Below, piece after piece: positions 3,615 through 57,083 of a DNA stretch of 57,803 bases; position 1 is the stretch's first letter; each line of letters starts with the position of its first letter. The notes beneath the pieces were generated by a model that saw only the letters and a list, made by a program, of their open reading frames with translations, was not told the origin of the DNA and searched no databases. Made by a program: the position numbers and the translations under genes. Origin of the DNA: Ferroacidibacillus organovorans (lineage in GTDB: Bacteria > Bacillota > Bacilli > Alicyclobacillales > SLC66); NCBI RefSeq assembly GCF_001642725.1, contig NZ_LSUQ01000004.1, positions 62,001 to 119,803 of the forward strand, given 5' to 3'.

Positions 3615-4142
3615 GTGGTGGAGACGCGCAAGGTATCGGTCTATCGCTTACCTGAACGTACTGGAAAAGAACCCTGCAATCCCTTGTATCGTCTCTATGA
3701 GACGGTGCCTTTTTTTCGTGTCGTAAGGTCAGTGCTCATCCAGCGAATGGTTCGCGTTTGTCCCAGTTTCTCACTAAAAAATACGATATACCGGCGACTG
3801 CTTGGGGTACAGATCGGTGTGCATACGGCGATCGCGCTTGATGTGACGCTCGATATGCTGAAGCCCGAGTGGATTTCGATTGGCCGAAATTGTGTCATCG
3901 GATACCAGACCACGATACTCACACACGAATACCTCATTCATGAGTATCGATTCGGACCAGTCACGATTGGCGATGAGGTTATGATTGGAGCGAATTCAAC
4001 GATTCTCGCGGGTGTCACGATCGGGAGCGGAAGTGTCATCGGGGCGGGCTCAGTCGTTTCATCCGACGTCCCGCCAGGCGTATTTGCAGCAGGGGTGCCT
4101 GCGCGAATCATTCGCTCATTGACAGCAACGACGCCCGAATGA
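3615..4142 (+). CDS. Hexapeptide-repeat acyltransferase (YvoF-like)
   Basis: Left-handed beta-helix repeats (IGRNCVIG, IGDEVMIGANSTILAGVTIG, GVPAR); lies between hprK and hisZ like B. subtilis yvoF. Confidence 0.85.
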   Translation: MVETRKVSVYRLPERTGKEPCNPLYRLYETVPFFRVVRSVLIQRMVRVCPSFSLKNTIYRRLLGVQIGVHTAIALDVTLDMLKPEWISIGRNCVIGYQTTILTHEYLIHEYRFGPVTIGDEVMIGANSTILAGVTIGSGSVIGAGSVVSSDVPPGVFAAGVPARIIRSLTATTPE

Positions 4143-12131: not shown

Positions 12132-13820
12132 ATGAAGATAAATAAAAAGACGCGCCTGCTGGGTGTCGTCGCATCGGTTACACTGCTCGGCGCGGCACTC
12201 GCTGGCTGCAGCACACAACCGTCTGCAACATCGCAAGCGCCTACCACACCTACCGCTCCTGCGACAACGGGCGCACAACCGGTCTACGGCGGAACGCTAA
12301 ACCTTGATTTGGCGGGCGCTTTCCCACACCTTGACCCAGTCAAGGCGTACGATACGACCTCGTATGAGGCGGTACTTCAGTTTTACAATCAGCTCGTGAC
12401 GTACAAAGGCGCGACGAATACGATTATTCCGAGCTTGGCTTCGCGCTACACGATCAGCCCGAACGGTAAAGTGTATACCTTTTACTTAGCGAATGCGAAG
12501 TTCTGGAATGGTCACCCGGTGACAGCGCAGAGCTTTATCACCGAGTTTGAGCGCGTGTTGAACCCTGTGAACAGCAGCGGCGGCCAAGGGTTTATCGATC
12601 CGTTCATCGCAGGCTCGAACGCGTACTACAGCGGTCACGCCAAGACGATCTCTGGACTGAAATCGCTCAACGGCGGCAAGACGCTCCAAATCACTTTGAC
12701 CCAGCGTGATCCAGTCTTCTTGTATGTGCTCGCGATGCCGTTTTTCTCGGCAGTCGATCCGACCTATATCGCGGGGCACAGCGAGTCGTACATCGATCAC
12801 AACCCAATGGGTACAGGTCCGTTCTATCTTGCGAGCTATCAACCGAACCAACAGTGGGTACTCAAGAAGAACCCGCACTATTTCCAAAAGGGTATCCCTT
12901 ATCTGAATGAGATTGTGTTTACAAACAACTCGTCTCCTTCGGCGGAACTTCTGCACTACAAGCAAGGCTTGACGGGGCTACTCGGCTACAACATCGGCGG
13001 TAACGGCATTCCGTCGCAAGACTATTTGCCGATTGTCATGAGCCCGACGTACAGCAAGCAGGTGTACAAAGTGGTTCAGGTGGCGACTCAGTATATCGGC
13101 CTTAACAACAAGGTCGGCCCGACGGCAAACGTAAAAGTCCGTCGCGCGCTCGAGTACGCGATCAACAAGAACTACCTTGTCAAAGTTTTGGGTGGACGCG
13201 CACTCCCGGCGAACCAGATCATCCCGCCGAGCATGCCTTCTGGCTATGAGGCGAAACTGCCGGCGAATGCGACGTATTCGTACAATCCGGCGCTCGCAAA
13301 GAAACTGCTCGCGCAAGCTGGCTACCCGCACGGCTTTACGACAACGATCTACTGTGACAACTCGAACCCAGACGATCTGCGGATCACTGAAGCGGTGCAG
13401 AGCATGTTGAAGGCAGTCGGCGTGACGGCGAACATTAATCAGTCGTCGTGGGGTACGTTCTTGACCAACAACGAGACGGGCAATCAGCCGATGTTTAACC
13501 TGGCGTGGGTTGAGGATTTCCCGGATCCGTCTGACTTCTTGAACACACTGTTCAATTCCAACCAACGACCGGTTAACAACTCGACGATGTACTCCAATCC
13601 GGCGGTTGACAAACTGCTAAACACTGCAGCAAACATGCCTGCGGGAACAGCGCGTGACAATCTCTACAAGCAAGCGCAAAACATCATCATGTCGCAAGCT
13701 GCGTGGATTCCATACGCGTATCCAGTCTTCACAGCGGCTGTCCAGCCTTGGCTGAAAGGGTACTATCTGAACCCAAATCAGGTCGATCCACTGCAATACG
13801 TTTGGATCGCGAAGCACTAA
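12132..13820 (+). CDS. oppA: Peptide ABC transporter substrate-binding lipoprotein (SBP family 5)
   Basis: Lipobox LAGC; family 5 motifs (LDPV, PSLA, YTFYL..KFWNGHPVTA, GTGPF, VRRALEYAIN). Confidence 0.9.
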   Translation: MKINKKTRLLGVVASVTLLGAALAGCSTQPSATSQAPTTPTAPATTGAQPVYGGTLNLDLAGAFPHLDPVKAYDTTSYEAVLQFYNQLVTYKGATNTIIPSLASRYTISPNGKVYTFYLANAKFWNGHPVTAQSFITEFERVLNPVNSSGGQGFIDPFIAGSNAYYSGHAKTISGLKSLNGGKTLQITLTQRDPVFLYVLAMPFFSAVDPTYIAGHSESYIDHNPMGTGPFYLASYQPNQQWVLKKNPHYFQKGIPYLNEIVFTNNSSPSAELLHYKQGLTGLLGYNIGGNGIPSQDYLPIVMSPTYSKQVYKVVQVATQYIGLNNKVGPTANVKVRRALEYAINKNYLVKVLGGRALPANQIIPPSMPSGYEAKLPANATYSYNPALAKKLLAQAGYPHGFTTTIYCDNSNPDDLRITEAVQSMLKAVGVTANINQSSWGTFLTNNETGNQPMFNLAWVEDFPDPSDFLNTLFNSNQRPVNNSTMYSNPAVDKLLNTAANMPAGTARDNLYKQAQNIIMSQAAWIPYAYPVFTAAVQPWLKGYYLNPNQVDPLQYVWIAKH

Positions 13821-46479: not shown

Positions 46480-47352
46480 TTACGCGCGCCTTGGGGCAGG
46501 CTTTTGCGCGAGAGATGTTACGGTGATCGCTTGTCGTCCCATGGCGACGTAACTGCTCTCAAACGTTTTGCGCGGTATGGCTTGGCGTGTCCCTGTCAGG
46601 GGGTTGTTCACATAAACATCGCGCGCGTTGTAGCCGACCAGGAGCACTACGTGCTCTTGCCAGGTTGCGCGCACGCGCCCGGTAGGGCTTTGCCACGTGA
46701 TAAAGGGGACGTGCGCCGTATAGTCGATGGTGGTCCATACGATGACTGGACGCCCTGTGCCTAAAAGGGTGAGAAGAGCGCGAAAGGGCTTGCCAGTCAT
46801 GTCGAGCGCCCGCTTTTGCGCCAACTGATTGAGCAGATTGGCAATGGGGGTGTGATAGACGCCATAGCCTGGCGCGTTGCCGCGCATACTTCCCACAAAA
46901 CCGCGTTCCGGATTTCCCCAAGAGAGGATAGCCCCGTTTGGAGACTGCGTGAGGGGTGTTTTATCGCGCGCAATCTTATGGGCAAGTTCGGGTAAGGACA
47001 CGTCGATATGAAGATAGCGTAGAAGCATTGCCAGACTCGTAATCTCACACCCGTTTTGATATCTCGGCAACTGACGGAGCCGGGTGACGCGCAAAAGTAA
47101 CCCAGTGTCACCCTGCGCCGAGAATAGATCGGTGTGCCCCATCGCTGCGCCCTCGAGTTGGAACTGTCGCCGCAACATAAGTGGAGAATCGGTCAGCGCA
47201 GTGCTTGGAAAGAGTGAGAAGATGAGCGCAGACAGAAGGGGCACGATCAGGTAAATTCTTCCGAGATGAAGGAGCCACTCGCGAACGGCGCGCCTTTTTT
47301 TTGCGAAGAATCCTTGCGTCGACATGCCAGAAGATGCGTTGTGTTGGATCAT
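46480..47352 (-). CDS. C39-like (YvpB type) cysteine peptidase with N-terminal TM/signal segment
   Basis: QLP.Y.NGCEITSLAMLL, GNPERGFVG, GRPVIVW, EHVVLLVGY, NNPL. Confidence 0.85.
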   Translation of the reverse strand: MIQHNASSGMSTQGFFAKKRRAVREWLLHLGRIYLIVPLLSALIFSLFPSTALTDSPLMLRRQFQLEGAAMGHTDLFSAQGDTGLLLRVTRLRQLPRYQNGCEITSLAMLLRYLHIDVSLPELAHKIARDKTPLTQSPNGAILSWGNPERGFVGSMRGNAPGYGVYHTPIANLLNQLAQKRALDMTGKPFRALLTLLGTGRPVIVWTTIDYTAHVPFITWQSPTGRVRATWQEHVVLLVGYNARDVYVNNPLTGTRQAIPRKTFESSYVAMGRQAITVTSLAQKPAPRRA

Positions 47353-47392: not shown

Positions 47393-48142
47393 TCAAACGT
47401 TCAGCCACGCCGCGAGTTCGCCTTCATCTACTGTGTGACCAACGTAGAATGGGCCGAATTCTGCATAGCGAGCGCTCACTTCATCAAAACGCATTTCATA
47501 GATCAGTTTTTTAAACTCGAGTGGATCTTGCGCGTAGAGCGTGACACCCCACTCCCAGTCGTCAAATCCAATCGATCCCGTAATGATCTGATAGACTCGT
47601 CCGGCGTACGATCTACCGATCATGCCGTGGCTGGTCATAAGTTCAATGCGTTTTTCTTTATCAAGCATATACCAGTTATCATCCGCGTTTCGGCGCTTGT
47701 TCATCGGGTAAAAACAGACGTGCTTTGGCTGCGTACTGAGTTTTGGTTCCAGTCTTCCTTTGAGGCGTGGATCATCTTTCGGATCGGAGCCCGGTTTGGA
47801 TAAATAGCTGCTCAATTCAACGATCGATACATACGAATAGGCAGGAATCAGTTCATCGGAGATCTCCAGTTTTTCAAACTCCGTCTTACACGCGATAAGC
47901 TCTTCCATCGTTTTGCGGAAATGAACGATCAGCAAATCTGCTTTGTGGCCAGCGATCAAATAGACGCCATAGCTTCCATCTTCTCGCCCTTCGATTTCAC
48001 GTTGGCTGCGCGAGTATGCTTGCAGGGATTCGATGCGCTGTTGTCGCATCTCAGGGGGCATGCTTTTCCAGGATGCCCAGTCCACCGTTCGAAAGTCGTG
48101 GTATGCATACCAGCCTTCAATGGTTTGGGTCGGTTCGCTCAT
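47393..48142 (-). CDS. hemQ: Coproheme decarboxylase (HemQ/ChdC)
   Basis: EGWY..HDFR, GHKADL, YSYVSIVELS, FYPMNKRR, NWYML, HGMIGR, GFDDWEWGV, YEMRFDEVSARY. Confidence 0.95.
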   Translation of the reverse strand: MSEPTQTIEGWYAYHDFRTVDWASWKSMPPEMRQQRIESLQAYSRSQREIEGREDGSYGVYLIAGHKADLLIVHFRKTMEELIACKTEFEKLEISDELIPAYSYVSIVELSSYLSKPGSDPKDDPRLKGRLEPKLSTQPKHVCFYPMNKRRNADDNWYMLDKEKRIELMTSHGMIGRSYAGRVYQIITGSIGFDDWEWGVTLYAQDPLEFKKLIYEMRFDEVSARYAEFGPFYVGHTVDEGELAAWLNV

Positions 48143-48224
48143 TGTTGCCGCCTCATTTCCATTCACATTCTATGCGTTCTAAGCGTAGCGCACTTCAGGG
48201 CCCGGGCGCAAATCATTCCATCGA

Positions 48225-49691
48225 TCAGATTTGAAATAACTCACAGAAGGATGCAACGTAACGCGGATCAAAACGCGTTCCAGAAAGCTGTCTGATTTCT
48301 TGAAGAGCGGCCGAATGCGCGACGCCGCGTGTCACGCTCTGTGCATATGTATCGGTGATCGCAACCATCCGCGCCAGCGGCGTAATCTCATCACCCGCGA
48401 GATGAAAGGGAAATCCTGTGCCATCGTACGCTTCATGGTGGTGGAAAATGGCGGTATACACATTTCCGGGGAGCCATTCGACCGTGAGCATCTCAAGGGT
48501 GAAAAACGGGTGTTGCTGGTAGCGTTTCCAGGCATCCATCGAGCGATGAGGATTTTTAATGATCTCAGGCTCGACCATCGTGAGCCCGTAATCAGCGAGC
48601 CTGCTGAGAAAAACGGCAGACGTTTCATCAGCGGCCGTTTCAGGGCAAACTTCGGCGAGCGCTCTCGTGTAAAACGTTCGCACATCGAGCAGATGCGCGA
48701 AATTGGGTTCGATCAGTTCGAGCGCGTCTGTGACGTCCAAGAGGATGACAAACTGTTCAAGCTTTGTCCACTCTTCGGGCGTCAGTGGATAGGTGGGGCG
48801 TTTGTGGGAAGGGACACTCCACGACTCCTGCAAGGTTTGCGCCGTTTGCCACGCCCGCCAGTTGCGCGCACGTCCAAACATCACGAGCGCTTTTTGCAGC
48901 AAACGAAGCGCGAGCGAAGGGTCACCTGCGTGATGCGCCACAATCGCCAAAATTTGCGCCAGGCTGGCGATTTCTTCACGCTCAAATTGGAGGTAACTTC
49001 TCCACACGACGTCGAGCGCGCGTTTTGCTGTTTTCGTAGCGTCATCCAACTGGTTTAGCGCAAAATCGAGTTGTGTTTGCACAGTATAGGCGGGAAGATA
49101 GGCATAATCGCCATACTGGTGCGCTCTTGCGAGATCATCGCTGGCTTTTTCGAATTGATTCAGTTCGAGATGTGCCATGGCGCGGTTTGTATATATCTCA
49201 GGGAGAATGTAATCAAGCTGATGCGCGAGGGCGATTTGCAAACTCTCATTTAAAAAGTGTAAGGATTCGTCCAGTAGGCCGAGTTCGCCGAGCAACATTC
49301 CATAATTACCCAAAAGGGATGCTTGTAATATAAAAGGTATATGAATTTCAGTTTGCAGTAAACTTTCGAGGATGAGACGAGCCTCTTGATTCTTGCCGTT
49401 GCGACGCTCTATGAGTGCTAAGTGCATTTGAAAGCGAATGCGTTGAACGGGGTCGCGACTTAACTCGATCGCCTGAATAAATGCGGATCTTGCATGATCC
49501 ACTGTGCCGAGTTGAACAAATATTTTCCCCAGTTCATCCCATACAGCATCGTTCATGTCGTGAGTATTCGCGCATGCGAGAATGGCTTTATAAGATTCGA
49601 TTGCTGCGTGATAAAATTTAAGAGAAACGTGTCTAGCTGCTTGATTAAATCTATTTTTACATGAACAACAGGGAGGATCGTGTGTCAACAC
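48225..49691 (-). CDS. TPR-repeat protein with C-terminal degenerate HD-GYP domain
   Basis: TPR-like units (WDELGKIFVQLG..DHARSAF.QAIEL, LGNYGMLLGELG, YTNRAMAHLELNQFEKA); C-terminal QHP, HHHEAYDGTGFP..LAGDEI...ARMVAITD, SGTRFDP; RBS AAAGGAGG. Confidence 0.9.
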   Translation of the reverse strand: MLTHDPPCCSCKNRFNQAARHVSLKFYHAAIESYKAILACANTHDMNDAVWDELGKIFVQLGTVDHARSAFIQAIELSRDPVQRIRFQMHLALIERRNGKNQEARLILESLLQTEIHIPFILQASLLGNYGMLLGELGLLDESLHFLNESLQIALAHQLDYILPEIYTNRAMAHLELNQFEKASDDLARAHQYGDYAYLPAYTVQTQLDFALNQLDDATKTAKRALDVVWRSYLQFEREEIASLAQILAIVAHHAGDPSLALRLLQKALVMFGRARNWRAWQTAQTLQESWSVPSHKRPTYPLTPEEWTKLEQFVILLDVTDALELIEPNFAHLLDVRTFYTRALAEVCPETAADETSAVFLSRLADYGLTMVEPEIIKNPHRSMDAWKRYQQHPFFTLEMLTVEWLPGNVYTAIFHHHEAYDGTGFPFHLAGDEITPLARMVAITDTYAQSVTRGVAHSAALQEIRQLSGTRFDPRYVASFCELFQI

Positions 49692-49738
49692 GTGATCCTC
49701 CTTTCAAAATTTTTACTTTTCTCAAGGGAGAAGATAGA

Positions 49739-49882
49739 TTACCAAATCTCACGCCAGCCGTGCGAAGTTGAGGTTGATGTTGACGTTCCTGTTGGAGAAA
49801 TTACGAAGAGGTTGAGTGCAAAAAAACTCGCGCACACCGTAAAAGTGAGCACAGGAAGGCTACGTTTGAAAAATTTGAACAC
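49739..49882 (-). CDS. 47-aa secreted propeptide candidate (not in ORF track)
   Basis: GTG 5 nt after AAGGGA; MFKFFKRSLPVLTFTVCASFFALNLFVISPTGTSTSTSTSHGWREIW; fills the gap between riboswitch and TPR gene. Confidence 0.8.
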   Translation of the reverse strand: MFKFFKRSLPVLTFTVCASFFALNLFVISPTGTSTSTSTSHGWREIW

Positions 49883-49906
49883 AAAAATCCCTTCTTTCGG
49901 TTAGGG

Positions 49907-49990
49907 TTCCGGCAACCCGGCTACCTTGGCGATCTCGCTTTAGGTCCGTGGCTTTGCGCCCTTACTTTTCAGTAAGTTTGCCTAATTAAT
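49907..49990 (-). ncRNA. Cyclic di-GMP-I (GEMM) riboswitch
   Basis: Minus strand GGCAAACUUACU-GAAA-AGUAAGGGCGCAAAGCCACGGACCUAAAGCGAGAUCGCCAAGGUAGCCGGGUUGCCG: P2 with GAAA tetraloop, CGCAAAGC junction, CCUAA receptor, P3. Confidence 0.92.
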
Positions 49991-50109
49991 ATTTAGCAGT
50001 TTTGTTGAGTACTGTCAATGATTTGTTTATAGTAGTTCATGAAGCTGTACGAGGGCTTCACACTCTGCCTTGTATTGATTTTTTAATGGAGGCTTTAGGG
50101 GGAGCATAC

Positions 50110-52369: not shown

Positions 52370-52411
52370 TCACTTTTTGAATGCAATTTTAAATCACATT
52401 TTGAATGCAAT
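52370..52411 (+). repeat. 18-bp direct repeat, two copies, 24-bp period
   Basis: TCACTTTTTGAATGCAAT (52370-52387) and TCACATTTTGAATGCAAT (52394-52411). Confidence 0.85.
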
Positions 52412-52424
52412 GAGGAGGGTTCCA

Positions 52425-55400
52425 ATGGCCGTTCGCGCCAGGAAACTGGCAACTGCACTCACCGTCGCGCTCGCGTTAACGAATGCTTTTCCACTCGCTG
52501 GCTTTATTGCAAACGCTTCCACAGTGAATCAAGTGGCTGTCACATTTCAGGTGACTTTGCCGCAGACGCCGTCGGGCGCTGTATATGTTACAGGAAATGC
52601 GCCAGAACTGGGCAACTGGACGCCACAGAGTGGCGTAGGCCCTTTTCACGCTACGTCAACGCCTGATGTGTACACCGATACGGTCATGATGAGCCCAGGG
52701 GAGGCATTTCAATACAAATTTGTTGAGATCAGCGGGACAACGGTGAACTGGGCGCCTGGGAGCAATTTTTCATATGTGGTGCCAACCGCTGTGTCCGCAG
52801 TAACGGTTAATGACGCCTATGCGACGACGATATCTCCTGTGCCGACGATTCTAACGTCAGCACTTCCCACGGCGACGCTTGATACGTCCTATGCTGCGAC
52901 AATTCTTACTGTCAACGACGGTGCAGAACCTTACGCCTACAGCGAGCAAGGTGCACTTCCGTCCGGTTTAACTTTTGTGAGCGGAAGCTTTTATGGTACC
53001 CCCCTAGCGACAGGGACGTATCCGGTCACAGTGACGGTAAAAGACAACTATGGAGCCTCACAAACTGCAAACTATACGCTTTCTGTGGGATTTCCGCCGA
53101 CCCCGTTGATTCAGAATACGACACTTCCAGCCGCCACGGTCGGACTCCCCTACACTGCACAACTTCAGGTGATCGGTGGAACGGCTCCCTATACCTTTTC
53201 GACGGTAACTGGCGCGACCTATGGGAGTCTGCCGGTTGGACTCTCGCTCTCTTCGGGCGGAACGCTCACAGGAATCCCACAGCAACCCGGTTCAGGCTCG
53301 TTTACGGTCTCTGTGTCGGACGCCAATCAGCGGTCGTCGTCACAAACCATCTCATTGCCTGTGAATGCGGCGACGATCGGTATCGGTGCCCAGCCGATAA
53401 CGGCAGGATATTCAAGCGCGACGCTGGTTGTTTCTGGCATCGGGACAGACTTTCAAAGCGGCGTGACGACGGTGTCGATCAGCGATGCGGTCAATGGGAC
53501 GATGAACCTGACGGCAGATACGTCTGTAACGTCGCCCTCCGCGCTCACGATTGCACTGCCTGGCGGAGATGCGGGGCTCGGCGCTGGAACGTACACGTTG
53601 AGTATCACGACGAGGGGGCAAACACAAACTGCCACGGTGCTTATCGCGCCGTTCACAAGTGCGACGACGGTTCAGTGGGATGGCATTTATACCACGCAGT
53701 CGGGCAGCTATCTCAGCAATCCGAATCCCGCGCCTGGAACAACCGTCACGATCGGGTTTCGCGCCTACAGCGGAAATTTGACTTCTGCCGTGTTGAATTA
53801 CTACGACACGGCACAGGGGAAGGGATTTTCCGTCAATATGACGCCGGGGAAAACGTTCGGTCCTTATCAGCTGTATACGGCGACGATCCCAGCGTCAAAC
53901 GGTGGGACGATTTATTATCGCTTCAACCTGTTTGACGGTCAGAATACCGCGTGCCTCTCGGGAGACGGTTTGCATACAGGAGATACGACGAACGACAATT
54001 TTGCGTTGCCGGTCGGTGGAATGTCCTTTTCTACGTTACACGCGAACGTGGGAGACTTAATCACTGCAAATGACAGCGTCGGGGATTTTAGCGCGGGGAC
54101 AACTGTCGCGAATTATGTCAACGCGAGCGGACAGGTGGTGGCATCCGCTGCGGGGCAAAACGCGGGGTGGAACTCGGTTCAATTTTCGGTTCCATCCGGG
54201 ATCGCGCAGGGGTTGTACACGGTTGATGTCGTCACACAGGCGAGAGACAGCAACGGCGTTGTCAACAGTCAGCTCGATCGCACATCCCTCTTGGCGGTCG
54301 GCTCGGGACACTATTGGTTTGACGATTTGAAACATGACTCATTCCAGCCGTTTTATCGCAGCCCGTTTGGCGCCGTCGCCGTTGGAACGAGTGTAACACT
54401 ACGCTTGCGCGGACCGCTCGGTCTTGTGAATCCAGAATTGCGGTTGTGGGGCGCGGCGGGAAATGCGGCAGAGACCGATTTGCCGATGACTCCTGTGGCG
54501 ATGAGTGCAAGCCAGATCGCACTTGCGACGGGGGATAATCCAGCCCATTACTCGTGGTGGCAAGTCACGATTCCGGCGACGGATATCACGCAAACAGGCG
54601 ACATGTGGTACCAATTCATGGGGCTGTATCAGGGACAAACGATCTATTACGACGACAACGGTGCACAGGTTGAGGGAATTGGGCAGCCGGGATTCTCGGC
54701 AGGTGGGCCGAGTTACCAACTCTCGGTGTATCAGGCAGGGTATCAGACGCCAACGTGGCTCAAGCATGCGGTCATCTATCAGATTTTCCCAGATCGCTTT
54801 TTCAACGGGAACATTACTAATGACCAGAATCCGAATGTCGACAAAACGGTGGGAACGCTGCCAAACGGGCAGGAGGGACTCGTTCCGATTCAATTTCACA
54901 AAAACTGGTACAGTCTTCCGTATGACCCGGCGATCACGGCAAACCCGACGGATCCCAACTACCAACAAGAACTGAAGCTGCGCGGGTCGGGACAGTGGAG
55001 TTCTGACTTTTTTGGCGGAGACTTGCGCGGCATTCAATACAAACTTGATTATTTGAAGAGCCTTGGCGTCAATACGCTGTACCTCAATCCGATCTTCCAG
55101 TCGAGCTCGAATCACAAGTATGACACGGGCAACTTCATGAAGATCGATCCCGGATTTGGCACGATGCAGGAGTGGTTGAATCTGGTGCGCGCGGCGAAAG
55201 CGCGCGGCATGCATATCATCTTGGACACGGCGTTTGAGGACACTGGGAGCAACAGTGTCTACTTCAACAAGTTTGGCACGTACAACTCGGTGGGGGCGTG
55301 GCAGCAATACAAGAAACCGAGTGTCACGTCTCCCTACTACAACTGGTTTGACTGGACGGGCAATCCAGCTTCTCCGTACAATTCGTGGTTCGGGTTTGAT

Positions 55401-57083
55401 ACGCTGCCGCTTGCCAATACCAGTAATCCTAGCTATCAAAACTTTGTCTACGGCGGAAAGAACGCAGTCGCAAAATACTGGATCGAGCAAGGGGCGTCTG
55501 GTTGGCGGCTCGACTCGGCGGACAACAGCAATTTTAGTGTCGCATGGTGGTCTGCTTTTCGCAGCGCCGTCAAATCAATTGATCCAAATGCGGCGATCAT
55601 CGGTGAAATATGGAACAATGCAACGAATGACAATGGTACCAACTGGTTTCAGGGGAACACGTTTGACTCTGTGATGAATTATCAGTTCAGAAACGCCGTA
55701 ATCGATTTTTTCCGCGGCAACTACAACGATGGCAATGTGACACATTCGCAGGTCGACGCGAGTGGGTTTAATAACGAGTTGATGCGACTTTATAGCGAGT
55801 ATCCGCTACAGTCGTTCTACTCGCTGATGAATCTCGTCGATTCGCACGACACGATGCGGATCCTGTCCATTTTGAGCAACGCGCCGAGTCCGACTGCGAT
55901 GAGTGCGTATCAGCAGGCAACATGGCAGCCGAGTGCAGCGGATATGGCGACGGGCATCGCAAAACTGAAGCTCGTCTCGGACTTCCAGTTCGCGTTTCCC
56001 GGCAATCCGACAGTCTACTACGGAGACGAGGCGGGGACGCTCGGCTACAAAGATCCGCTGGATCGCGGAACCTATCCGTGGGGGCGCGCCAACACGGATC
56101 TGGTGAATCACTATCGCTTGCTTGGCGCGATTCGCGGCGCAAATCCGGTGCTTCAGACGGGGACGTTTACGCCGCTCTACACGCAAGGGGGCGTTTACGC
56201 GTTTGCACGCACGATCACGGGTAGCAAAGACGTGTTTGGCGCACCGGCGCAGGACGCATCCGCCATATTTGCGATGAACAACGCGGCGAGTGGTTCGACG
56301 GTGACGATTCCTGTGCAGGGGACTGTTGCGGATGGGACAGCGATGCTTGATGAACTGAGCGGACAGTGGTACACGGTTACGAATGGAAGTGTGACGCTGC
56401 CGCTTGGCGCGTATCAAGGCGCGCTTCTGATCGCGAATCCTAGCGCGCCGGTCGCCATGATGCAGAGTACGTCGACAAACACGTGGCTGCAGTGGACGCC
56501 CGTGGCTGGCGCACGCGGCTATCGCGTGTATGTGAAGCGTCCGGATGGGACGTATCAGCCTGTCGGGAAGAAGCTGTCGCGTGACACGCTGAGTCTTGAT
56601 GTGACGGCGCTGCGCGGCGCGCGGGCGAAGGTGTTTCGCGTCCTTGCGCTATCGGGAGACAGAAAGGGTAAAGCGGGGGATGGTCAGGAATTGGCGCAGA
56701 ATCCTGCGAGTTCATGTGCAGTGACCGTTCCGGCGGCCAATCTCTCGATCGGGCAACCGATTGCAACGGTGAAAAAGCAAGAAGTGAAGATCAGTCTGCC
56801 GGCGGTCGCGAATGCGAGTGCGTATAAAGTTTACGAGGAGACGAGTGACGGCTCTTACGGTTTGATTGAAACCGTTCCGGCGGCACAGGATAGCCAAGGG
56901 AAAGATGCGCAGGGGGCAGTGGACAAAGCAAACGGTGCCGATCAACGTCAGATGGTTCTGCGCGTGCCCGCGAGTGGATCGCTCGTGTTTGAAGTAGCCG
57001 CGCAAAATCAAGATGATTACGTGGTGACACAGCCTGTGACGGCATCGGATGCGACACTTCCGCAAACGCCGCCAAGCAAGTAG
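52425..57083 (+). CDS. Secreted multidomain GH13 amylopullulanase / alpha-amylase
   Basis: Signal peptide; CBM20-like (VYVTGNAPELGNW, YKFV); two Ig-like repeats (LPTAT..., GALPSGL); GH13 YQIFPDRF, GGDLRGI, NHKYDT, GWRLD, GEIW, SHD, YYGDE; ATG after GAGGAGG. Confidence 0.93.
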   Translation: MAVRARKLATALTVALALTNAFPLAGFIANASTVNQVAVTFQVTLPQTPSGAVYVTGNAPELGNWTPQSGVGPFHATSTPDVYTDTVMMSPGEAFQYKFVEISGTTVNWAPGSNFSYVVPTAVSAVTVNDAYATTISPVPTILTSALPTATLDTSYAATILTVNDGAEPYAYSEQGALPSGLTFVSGSFYGTPLATGTYPVTVTVKDNYGASQTANYTLSVGFPPTPLIQNTTLPAATVGLPYTAQLQVIGGTAPYTFSTVTGATYGSLPVGLSLSSGGTLTGIPQQPGSGSFTVSVSDANQRSSSQTISLPVNAATIGIGAQPITAGYSSATLVVSGIGTDFQSGVTTVSISDAVNGTMNLTADTSVTSPSALTIALPGGDAGLGAGTYTLSITTRGQTQTATVLIAPFTSATTVQWDGIYTTQSGSYLSNPNPAPGTTVTIGFRAYSGNLTSAVLNYYDTAQGKGFSVNMTPGKTFGPYQLYTATIPASNGGTIYYRFNLFDGQNTACLSGDGLHTGDTTNDNFALPVGGMSFSTLHANVGDLITANDSVGDFSAGTTVANYVNASGQVVASAAGQNAGWNSVQFSVPSGIAQGLYTVDVVTQARDSNGVVNSQLDRTSLLAVGSGHYWFDDLKHDSFQPFYRSPFGAVAVGTSVTLRLRGPLGLVNPELRLWGAAGNAAETDLPMTPVAMSASQIALATGDNPAHYSWWQVTIPATDITQTGDMWYQFMGLYQGQTIYYDDNGAQVEGIGQPGFSAGGPSYQLSVYQAGYQTPTWLKHAVIYQIFPDRFFNGNITNDQNPNVDKTVGTLPNGQEGLVPIQFHKNWYSLPYDPAITANPTDPNYQQELKLRGSGQWSSDFFGGDLRGIQYKLDYLKSLGVNTLYLNPIFQSSSNHKYDTGNFMKIDPGFGTMQEWLNLVRAAKARGMHIILDTAFEDTGSNSVYFNKFGTYNSVGAWQQYKKPSVTSPYYNWFDWTGNPASPYNSWFGFDTLPLANTSNPSYQNFVYGGKNAVAKYWIEQGASGWRLDSADNSNFSVAWWSAFRSAVKSIDPNAAIIGEIWNNATNDNGTNWFQGNTFDSVMNYQFRNAVIDFFRGNYNDGNVTHSQVDASGFNNELMRLYSEYPLQSFYSLMNLVDSHDTMRILSILSNAPSPTAMSAYQQATWQPSAADMATGIAKLKLVSDFQFAFPGNPTVYYGDEAGTLGYKDPLDRGTYPWGRANTDLVNHYRLLGAIRGANPVLQTGTFTPLYTQGGVYAFARTITGSKDVFGAPAQDASAIFAMNNAASGSTVTIPVQGTVADGTAMLDELSGQWYTVTNGSVTLPLGAYQGALLIANPSAPVAMMQSTSTNTWLQWTPVAGARGYRVYVKRPDGTYQPVGKKLSRDTLSLDVTALRGARAKVFRVLALSGDRKGKAGDGQELAQNPASSCAVTVPAANLSIGQPIATVKKQEVKISLPAVANASAYKVYEETSDGSYGLIETVPAAQDSQGKDAQGAVDKANGADQRQMVLRVPASGSLVFEVAAQNQDDYVVTQPVTASDATLPQTPPSK

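Follow-up and report, generated by a model that had tools for sequence, protein, structure and literature searches.

What is encoded by an unannotated frame of 47 codons that lies between a cyclic di-GMP (c-di-GMP) riboswitch and the gene of a large tetratricopeptide repeat (TPR) protein? The frame is found in a 57,803-nt stretch of the Ferroacidibacillus organovorans genome (GCF_001642725.1, contig NZ_LSUQ01000004.1, positions 62,001 to 119,803), here called the window, whose own positions serve as coordinates. Our preferred answer, to which we assign a probability of roughly 0.6, is that it encodes a riboswitch-gated, exported pro-peptide whose C-terminal tail is re-imported and docks in the neighboring TPR protein, which also bears an HD-GYP-like domain (the TPR-HD protein), so that the two would form a Rap–Phr-like pair. 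A preliminary description of this DNA had proposed a 47-aa frame ending in HGWREIW, with its own ribosome-binding site (RBS), AAGGGA, and composed of a basic N-region, a hydrophobic core, a low-complexity spacer and the HGWREIW tail. We find this open reading frame (ORF) on the minus strand, with the RBS, a Shine–Dalgarno (SD) sequence, just before it and all four segments in place:

49739..49882, minus strand: 47-aa propeptide gene, 47 codons with a GTG start and a TAA stop; the protein is MFKFFKRSLPVLTFTVCASFFALNLFVISPTGTSTSTSTSHGWREIW
49882..49862, minus strand: basic N-region of the propeptide, residues 1–7
49861..49799, minus strand: hydrophobic core, residues 8–28
49798..49763, minus strand: Ser/Thr-rich spacer, residues 29–40
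49762..49742, minus strand: tail HGWREIW, residues 41–47
49893..49888, minus strand: SD sequence AAGGGA of the propeptide gene, 5 nt before the GTG
49692..49738, minus strand: 47-nt spacer between the propeptide gene and the TPR gene, containing the RBS GGAGGA at 49701..49696

Comparison with the genome of a sister species of the same genus, which retains the complete arrangement of the window locus, confirms at the sequence level that the propeptide frame is a real, conserved gene under purifying selection. The two copies differ by 18 substitutions in 144 nt, which fall 3/1/14 on the three codon positions (P = 1.4e-4 for at least 14 at one given position), with no indels and a ratio of nonsynonymous to synonymous substitution rates (dN/dS) of 0.067. 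In the same comparison, the 47-nt spacer 3' of the ORF is 40% diverged, the aptamer differs at 5 of 85 positions, the 25-nt expression platform is identical (0/25 differences), and the differences in the gene of the 488-aa TPR-HD protein are distributed 54/40/199 by codon position. A 74-aa ORF on the opposite strand (49680..49904, plus strand) spans the whole propeptide gene; we take it as spurious because the substitution pattern suits the minus-strand frame.

The frame is not confined to this pair of genomes. The TPR-HD protein, used as a query on 61 genomes of the order, has full-length relatives in about 24 of them; 22 loci were taken, two of which end too early upstream, leaving 20 with enough upstream DNA. 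A c-di-GMP-I-class aptamer lies upstream in 18 of these 20, and in all 18 an ORF of 44–79 aa begins about 25–35 nt past the aptamer; its product starts with a signal peptide and ends in a conserved [HP]DG-aromatic...I/V-W tail, with a variable Ser/Thr-rich spacer in between. Aptamer and peptide are both missing in the other two, which come from one genus. The preliminary description had named a frame disrupted in close relatives as the outcome that would count against it, and had looked to related genomes for a conserved tail behind a variable spacer. The frame is intact in the closest relative with riboswitch and TPR gene, and across about 30 relatives the tail is indeed conserved and the spacer variable. 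Its statement that the gene is unannotated also stands, in that the propeptide did not turn up among the protein matches in a large collection. No Pfam or NCBIfam family matched the propeptide, and the best Protein atlas feature, an unnamed 48-aa cluster with a score of 0.76, was uninformative. Among RNA data, no run was listed as containing the locus, and three metatranscriptome runs contained almost none of the sequence words searched for.

Two explanations that deny the peptide a function of its own are contradicted by this conservation at the protein level. One holds that the TPR gene's 5' leader merely happens to contain an open frame, as the shortness of the ORF, its GTG start, the lack of a family match and the many ORFs of similar size in the window might suggest; set against the third-position substitution bias, the absence of indels next to a spacer 40% diverged, and a homologous ORF at every aptamer-bearing related locus, this is barely credible. 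The other holds that it is a regulatory leader ORF, the translation of which couples the riboswitch to the TPR gene while the peptide itself is functionless. Its position between riboswitch and main gene, and an expression platform that masks the SD of the ORF, would suit such a role. We nevertheless consider it very improbable, given the dN/dS of 0.067 and a signal peptide and tail motif conserved across families; moreover, the TPR gene has its own strong RBS behind the 47-nt spacer, and in most relatives an entire kinase gene separates the peptide and TPR genes.

Control of the propeptide gene appears to lie in its leader, which contains the following elements:

49908..49992, minus strand: c-di-GMP-I riboswitch aptamer (RF01051), from cmscan
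49883..49907, minus strand: expression platform, from identity with the sister species, folding and covariation
49906..49903, minus strand: anti-SD sequence CCCU, within the expression platform
49901..49898, minus strand: ACCG, within the expression platform, able to pair with the aptamer 3' CCGG (49912..49909)

The aptamer is matched over model positions 1–87 of 87 with 83.7 bits, against a gathering score of 35 (E = 3.3e-16), and ends 25 nt before the propeptide GTG. A promoter scan found no minus-strand promoter-like site 5' of the aptamer, and a terminator scan found no terminator-like site between the propeptide ORF and the TPR gene (49692..49738). The CCCU/AGGG hairpin that would mask the SD is present in both the minimum free energy and the centroid folds. 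Across 24 distinct leaders, a pyrimidine stretch right behind the aptamer faces the SD and co-varies with it, giving the anti-SD/SD pairs CCC/GGG, CCCU/AGGG, UCCCU/AGGGA, UUCCU/AGGAG, UCUCCU/AGGAGG and CCUU/AAGG. The leaders' own pairs have a mean score of 10.25, compared with 9.26 for exchanged pairs (the observed value being reached in 61 of 5000 permutations) and 7.70 for shuffled anti-SD regions (reached in 0 of 2000).

The hairpin loop, ACCG(U), can in turn pair with the aptamer 3' CCGG, and this type of pairing covaries as well (CCUG/CAG in two leaders, CCAG/CUG, CCGU/ACG). The SD hairpin and the loop–CCGG pairing cannot easily coexist. We therefore propose that the riboswitch gates translation of the propeptide and is likely OFF with c-di-GMP bound: the ligand would hold the CCGG within the aptamer, leaving the ACCG further downstream free, so that the anti-SD/SD hairpin could form and shut translation off. 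The whole-leader folding z-score is −1.0, and folding does not settle the ON/OFF direction. In two relatives (L012, aptamer at 3937–4028; L024, 4064–4149), the aptamer upstream of the peptide gene is best described as the c-di-GMP-I-GGC variant (RF03167, 65.8 and 72.5 bits, respectively, better than RF01051), and ligand specificity may therefore differ between members of the operon family.

The peptide itself has the build of an exported precursor. In the family alignments (A1, and A4 with 32 members), the N-terminus has a net charge of +1 to +4 and precedes an uncharged stretch of 14–26 residues. A P-x-[FWYMLA]-A motif ends near residue 24 in 27 of the 32 aligned members, the five without it being the window copy, L004, L025, L059 and L061. 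The spacer is variable in sequence and in length (about 10 to about 45 residues), and is followed by a tail of the type [HP]-D-G-aromatic-x-x-[IV]-[WV], at times with one or two additional acidic residues; examples are HGWREIW, PDGMVLIW, HDGYRVIW, TQGLRELW, NGPVWYWDD and TLVRPIWD. The window copy has A-S-F-F-A at residues 18–22, with Phe at −3, and shares with its sister-species orthologue a short spacer and the replacement of the canonical cleavage motif by ASFFA followed by LNLFVI. The earlier remark that no clear AxA site is visible thus applies to the window copy but cannot be extended to the family.

This departure from the family motif, which in both copies leaves S-F-F-A and LNLFVI in an uncharged stretch of about 20 residues in place of P-x-F-A, would also fit an uncleaved single-pass membrane micro-protein that, for example, recruits or regulates the TPR-HD protein or a transporter. 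We regard such a role as improbable: the 27 members with the standard cleavage motif have it at a fixed position, and the positive N-terminus predicts that the tail lies extracellularly, apart from the TPR protein in the cytoplasm. The latter has neither a signal peptide nor a membrane segment, and its AlphaFold2 (AF2) model consists entirely of helical repeats.

An exhaustive profile search of 1.84 billion representatives returned 39 proteins at E ≤ 0.001, 17 of them at E ≤ 1e-10. Bar a few long proteins, the matches are 45–96 aa long and, where the source names them, are called "hypothetical protein" from Alicyclobacillus or Sulfobacillus. The few long matches, which were sampled, we judge not to be related to the peptide family; P0035, P0045 and P0037 match via repeats such as TPDGWVYFQGTDNKLW and were set aside as chance tail likeness. 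P0035 (537 aa) and P0045 (511 aa) carry 4–6 repeats of this kind with a weak match to the tail region of the profile (E = 5e-6 and 6e-4, respectively), and the resemblance of the repeat to the DG-aromatic tail is probably fortuitous. Profiles of known pheromones (Phr, NprX and PapR; PF11131, NF038040 and NF033801) gave no match above cut-off, their best E-values being 0.078–0.12 in 1–2 of 19 members and the window peptide not matching. Likewise, the WGxxGxxG family (NF041742) reached at best 20.8 bits against a cut-off of 35, with no match to the window peptide, and its sub-threshold matches fall mostly on the signal peptide and the Ser/Thr-rich region. The sub-threshold WGxxGxxG, BRANT and AbpA matches were all rejected as signal-peptide or low-complexity matches.

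The gene that follows the propeptide gene encodes the predicted receptor:

48225..49691, minus strand: 488-aa TPR + HD-GYP-like protein, predicted receptor (Pfam, AF2 model)
49670..48807, minus strand: TPR superhelix, residues ~8–295 of the 488-aa protein
48779..48228, minus strand: HD-GYP-like domain, residues ~305–488 of the 488-aa protein

Pfam detects HD_5 (1.5e-15) and TPR families in this protein, and its AF2 model is confident, with a predicted local distance difference test (pLDDT) of 91 and a predicted template modelling score (pTM) of 0.88. The absence of a signal peptide or membrane segment from its sequence places it in the cytoplasm. Aligned with VIA-align, its TPR superhelix gives Z scores of 20.6 with pheromone-bound phi3T Rap, 20.2 with RapI, 20.1 with NprR–NprX, 19.9 with RapJ and 19.2 with RapF–PhrF, and the alignments to Rap and NprR cover 259–286 residues of the domain. 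NprR is also a sequence-profile match to the 488-aa protein (E = 5.5e-8), well below generic TPRs. The top Foldseek matches are consensus TPRs, OGT, LGN, PEX5 and HD-GYP domains; receptors of the RRNPP family, to which Rap and NprR belong, surface only on VIA-align re-ranking, where they tie with generic TPRs (LGN, TSK, APPBP2). For the HD-GYP-like domain, the structural matches are DvhD (Z 21.4), PmGH (19.3) and PA4781 (19.1). The motif HHExxDGxG[FY]P is kept across the TPR-HD family, HHHEAYDGTGFP aligning with the corresponding motif of 4r8z, 5z7c and 4mcw. In contrast, R[FL]ADYGLT (residues ~364–372 of the window protein) stands in place of the HD-GYP motif HDIGK, with the Lys lost too, and LADYGL of the 488-aa protein aligns with LHDIGK and MHDIGK.

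Prediction of the complex, using the family alignments and propeptide residues 18–47, supports docking of the SHGWREIW tail in the TPR groove of the co-encoded protein. Three runs scored 0.69, 0.82 and 0.80 (median 0.80) and share at least 53% of their contacts, while three controls (two unrelated 30-mers and one unrelated large protein) scored 0.01, 0.00 and 0.00. In calibration, 116 of 157 solved complexes and 2 of 215 mismatched pairs reach the mark, a scale that is only rough for our own alignments. The confident interface comprises exactly propeptide residues 40–47 against TPR residues 56–280:

49742..49765, minus strand: predicted receptor-binding tail SHGWREIW, residues 40–47 (complex model and family conservation)

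The preliminary description had placed the active part in a C-terminal fragment, SHGWREIW or GWREIW, and the model agrees. On the receptor side, the predicted interface includes N129 (conserved in 20/20 sequences), N169 (19/20), E240 and F272, with the highly variable positions 125, 132, 162 and 165 adjoining conserved interface residues. Interface columns have an entropy of 1.74 as compared to 2.06 for the rest of the TPR region, a value matched or beaten by 343 of 10000 random sets. This modelled arrangement of conserved Asn and variable neighbors resembles the pattern described for Rap–Phr (PMC3601957), in which conserved backbone anchors lie next to variable specificity positions and RapF Asn227 is a strictly conserved groove Asn that holds the peptide backbone; N129 and N169 are candidates for a like role.

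The genomic distribution links the peptide to this receptor. In public genomes, scanning found 22 loci, none of them outside Alicyclobacillus, Alicyclobacillaceae, Sulfobacillus and unclassified Bacillota metagenome-assembled genomes (MAGs); 13 of the 22 are not duplicates of earlier ones, and 10 of these 13 have both aptamer and peptide. Among the sequences searched, the peptide family is shown to be confined to Alicyclobacillaceae- and Sulfobacillus-like Bacillota and to lie always upstream of a gene for a TPR protein with a degenerate HD-GYP domain. At one MAG locus (L060), peptide, kinase and TPR-HD genes are present but the aptamer was not found even at E 0.1; the peptide therefore goes with the receptor module and not with the riboswitch alone. 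Conversely, four loci of one genus (L020, L021, L049 and L051) have kinase and TPR-HD protein without aptamer or peptide. Since these loci and L060 each keep subsets, the three parts of the module are separately losable.

The kinase is encoded by a gene of about 220 aa that lies between the peptide and TPR genes in 16 of the 18 relatives' loci. It consists of HisKA_3 and HATPase_c only, with no sensor or membrane part, and its stop codon often overlaps the start of the TPR gene. It is missing at the window locus, in the sister species and in L023 (Alicyclobacillus). The window's own genome nevertheless has the full arrangement elsewhere: on contig 23, a paralogous operon comprises an aptamer, a 70-aa peptide ending in HDGWRTAL, a HisKA_3 kinase and a TPR-HD protein. 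This paralogue was too diverged to be found by a propeptide search of the genome, which returned only the propeptide itself and a weak match with stop codons (E 0.026). The riboswitch search found eight c-di-GMP-I aptamers in this genome (contigs C23, C8, C40, C3 and C2; loci L034–L040), and it was this search that revealed the paralogous operon. One of the others (L037) precedes a 255-aa secreted protein with a similar ...LPAFA signal peptide, and others precede a 141-aa ORF and a 61-aa ORF, the latter next to an HTH-like gene.

The L037 arrangement speaks for the main competing explanation, in which the product is a secreted or cell-surface mini-protein (biofilm matrix, adhesion, surface property) whose amount is set by c-di-GMP and which the TPR protein does not sense. 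Surface and matrix genes are common targets of c-di-GMP riboswitches, and the Ser/Thr-rich, low-complexity mature part suits a surface role; the 70-aa members, moreover, conserve their entire mature region and not the tail alone. However, the association of the peptide with the TPR-HD module is close and durable, holding even at the locus without an aptamer, and both the peptide and TPR genes were retained after loss of the kinase in the window's genus. Furthermore, the tail is the only part that short members keep, and the complex model places it in a conserved groove, with controls at 0.01. We thus consider a mini-protein of this kind unlikely, while regarding it as the most serious competitor.

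Several observations weigh against the pairing of an exported peptide with the TPR-HD receptor. On the peptide side, the window copy is without a canonical signal-peptidase site, and the roughly 20 residues of its hydrophobic segment could hold it in the membrane. The 70-aa members also conserve a middle part of the mature region (SN.GS.QGQ..RS.TGT.NKF), and in these the whole secreted protein, not the tail alone, may be functional. As for the complex, the pLDDT of the partner is low (42–47), and part of the score may reflect likeness to TPR–peptide complexes, which are frequent among solved structures. Tail and groove residues do not covary significantly (partial r 0.138, a value equalled or exceeded in 732 of 5000 permutations and with 318 of 1000 random position sets). 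RRNPP receptors match the predicted receptor no better, and in part less well, than generic TPRs (LGN, TSK, consensus TPRs), and because of this tie RRNPP ancestry is not provable by fold. The HD dyad is degenerate, with His in 0 of 20 sequences (Ala in 19, Cys in 1); the HD-GYP-like domain may therefore have become a weakened hydrolase or a binding domain, or may act in some other way. Finally, the direction of riboswitch control is read from the pairing alternatives only.

Weighing these points, we still favor a riboswitch-gated, re-imported pro-peptide sensed by the TPR-HD protein, and propose the following sequence of events. The propeptide gene would be the first gene of a c-di-GMP-riboswitch-controlled operon, and the pre-peptide, judging from its sequence, would be exported by Sec with its N-terminus inside. 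Signal peptidase and/or extracellular proteases would free the C-terminal tail, about SHGWREIW to GWREIW, which would then be taken back up, probably via an Opp-type permease. In the cytoplasm, the tail is predicted to bind stretched out along the concave TPR groove, where Asn129, which is invariant, and Asn169 hold it in the model. Binding would alter the activity of the C-terminal HD-GYP-like domain and, in most relatives, would affect the HisKA_3 kinase as well, which is translationally coupled and lacks a sensor. The genome has eight SBP_bac_5 (OppA-like) genes, which speak for import capacity only. One SBP_bac_5 (OppA/DppA-like) gene lies in the window (12420..13565, plus strand), about 36 kb from the propeptide gene.

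A more ambitious version of this proposal, which we hold only tentatively and consider doubtful as it stands, is a closed loop between peptide quorum sensing and c-di-GMP that operates without a transcription factor. Here, c-di-GMP would set the amount of pro-peptide via the riboswitch, and the re-imported tail would bind a TPR-gated domain of the HD-GYP type, whose role would be to hydrolyse or sense a cyclic dinucleotide, the protein serving in most relatives as the detachable sensor subunit of the HisKA_3 kinase. If true, it would provide the first example of second-messenger output from an RRNPP-like receptor, and of a pheromone gene that a riboswitch controls directly.

Comparison with known systems places the locus close to, but outside, established families. 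Like Rap–Phr and NprR–NprX, the system combines a short gene for a Sec-type pro-peptide, in which the signal is likely to be the C-terminal part, with a cytoplasmic TPR superhelix, along whose concave groove the peptide is predicted to stretch out on conserved Asn. In RRNPP receptors, however, the effector is an N-terminal HTH domain or 3-helix bundle, whereas here it is a C-terminal HD-GYP-like domain. The peptide gene here lies upstream, is usually parted from the receptor gene by a HisKA_3 kinase gene, and is under a c-di-GMP riboswitch. Given the different effector at the other end, the lack of a pheromone profile match and the likeness to generic TPRs, we note the resemblance in action but do not file the system under RRNPP. 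The term Phr-like in the preliminary description thus remains apt for the probable mode of action and not for family membership, there being no Phr, NprX or PapR profile match and an HD-GYP-like rather than a Rap or HTH output.

The leader, with a canonical aptamer and an SD-masking hairpin directly after it, is like that of c-di-GMP-I (GEMM-I) translational riboswitches, whose known targets are motility, pilus, adhesin and enzyme genes; the target here is a putative signalling pro-peptide. In the RpfC/RpfG system, a fatty-acid signal, the diffusible signal factor (DSF), is sensed by a membrane kinase that phosphorylates a REC–HD-GYP protein. The present system would likewise tie a diffusible cell–cell signal to an HD-GYP-type domain and a histidine kinase, but its signal would be a peptide that binds straight to the TPR domain of a protein that also contains the HD-GYP-like domain, with no REC and with a degenerate HD dyad. 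Extended peptides in TPR grooves are likewise seen in PEX5–PTS1, the APPBP2 C-degron complex and LGN–peptide, all among the best structural matches; these are eukaryotic and functionally unrelated, and the likeness is one of fold and binding mode only.

In Bacillota, peptide quorum sensing is known to end in DNA-binding regulators or Rap phosphatases, and the known targets of c-di-GMP riboswitches are motility, adhesion and enzyme genes. The present module joins such a second-messenger riboswitch, placed on a pheromone-like gene, to a predicted receptor with a domain of the cyclic-dinucleotide type. If confirmed, it would represent a new receptor architecture among RRNPP-like systems and provide a testable signal for acidophilic Alicyclobacillaceae and Sulfobacillus, in which cell–cell signalling is hardly known. 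The propeptide gene is also a clear example of a functional gene below the usual ORF cut-offs. Because the kinase gene separates peptide from receptor, adjacency-based pheromone finders would miss most members and, if the system is confirmed, do miss such kinase-interrupted systems.

Full-text literature searches turned up no paper that deals with a c-di-GMP riboswitch in Alicyclobacillus or connects RRNPP with that genus, and none that describes the present system or a signalling peptide under the control of a c-di-GMP riboswitch. Nor did they find one linking RRNPP to an HD-GYP receptor, both terms occurring together only in a paper on Streptococcus phage paratox. Among the rows listed in the part of the RRNPP_detector supplement used here (PMC10075063), the Alicyclobacillus receptors are of the HTH–TPR type, and three A. 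mengziensis CP071182 rows lie at 3.99 Mb, not at the two loci of the present family in that genome, at 1.10 Mb and 0.21 Mb.

Beyond the TPR gene, a chlorite-dismutase/HemQ-like gene (47393..48166) is followed by the gene of a 290-aa Peptidase_C39_2 protein with an N-terminal hydrophobic segment (46480..47352, minus strand), two genes 3' of the TPR gene. The order around the Peptidase_C39_2 gene is common to the sister species, and this gene stands beside the operon in no other relative observed; that its product takes part in peptide processing is only a thought. On the other side, 2.4 kb from the propeptide locus, a 1568-aa ORF (52377..57083, plus strand) has an N-terminal signal-like segment and long repeat regions.

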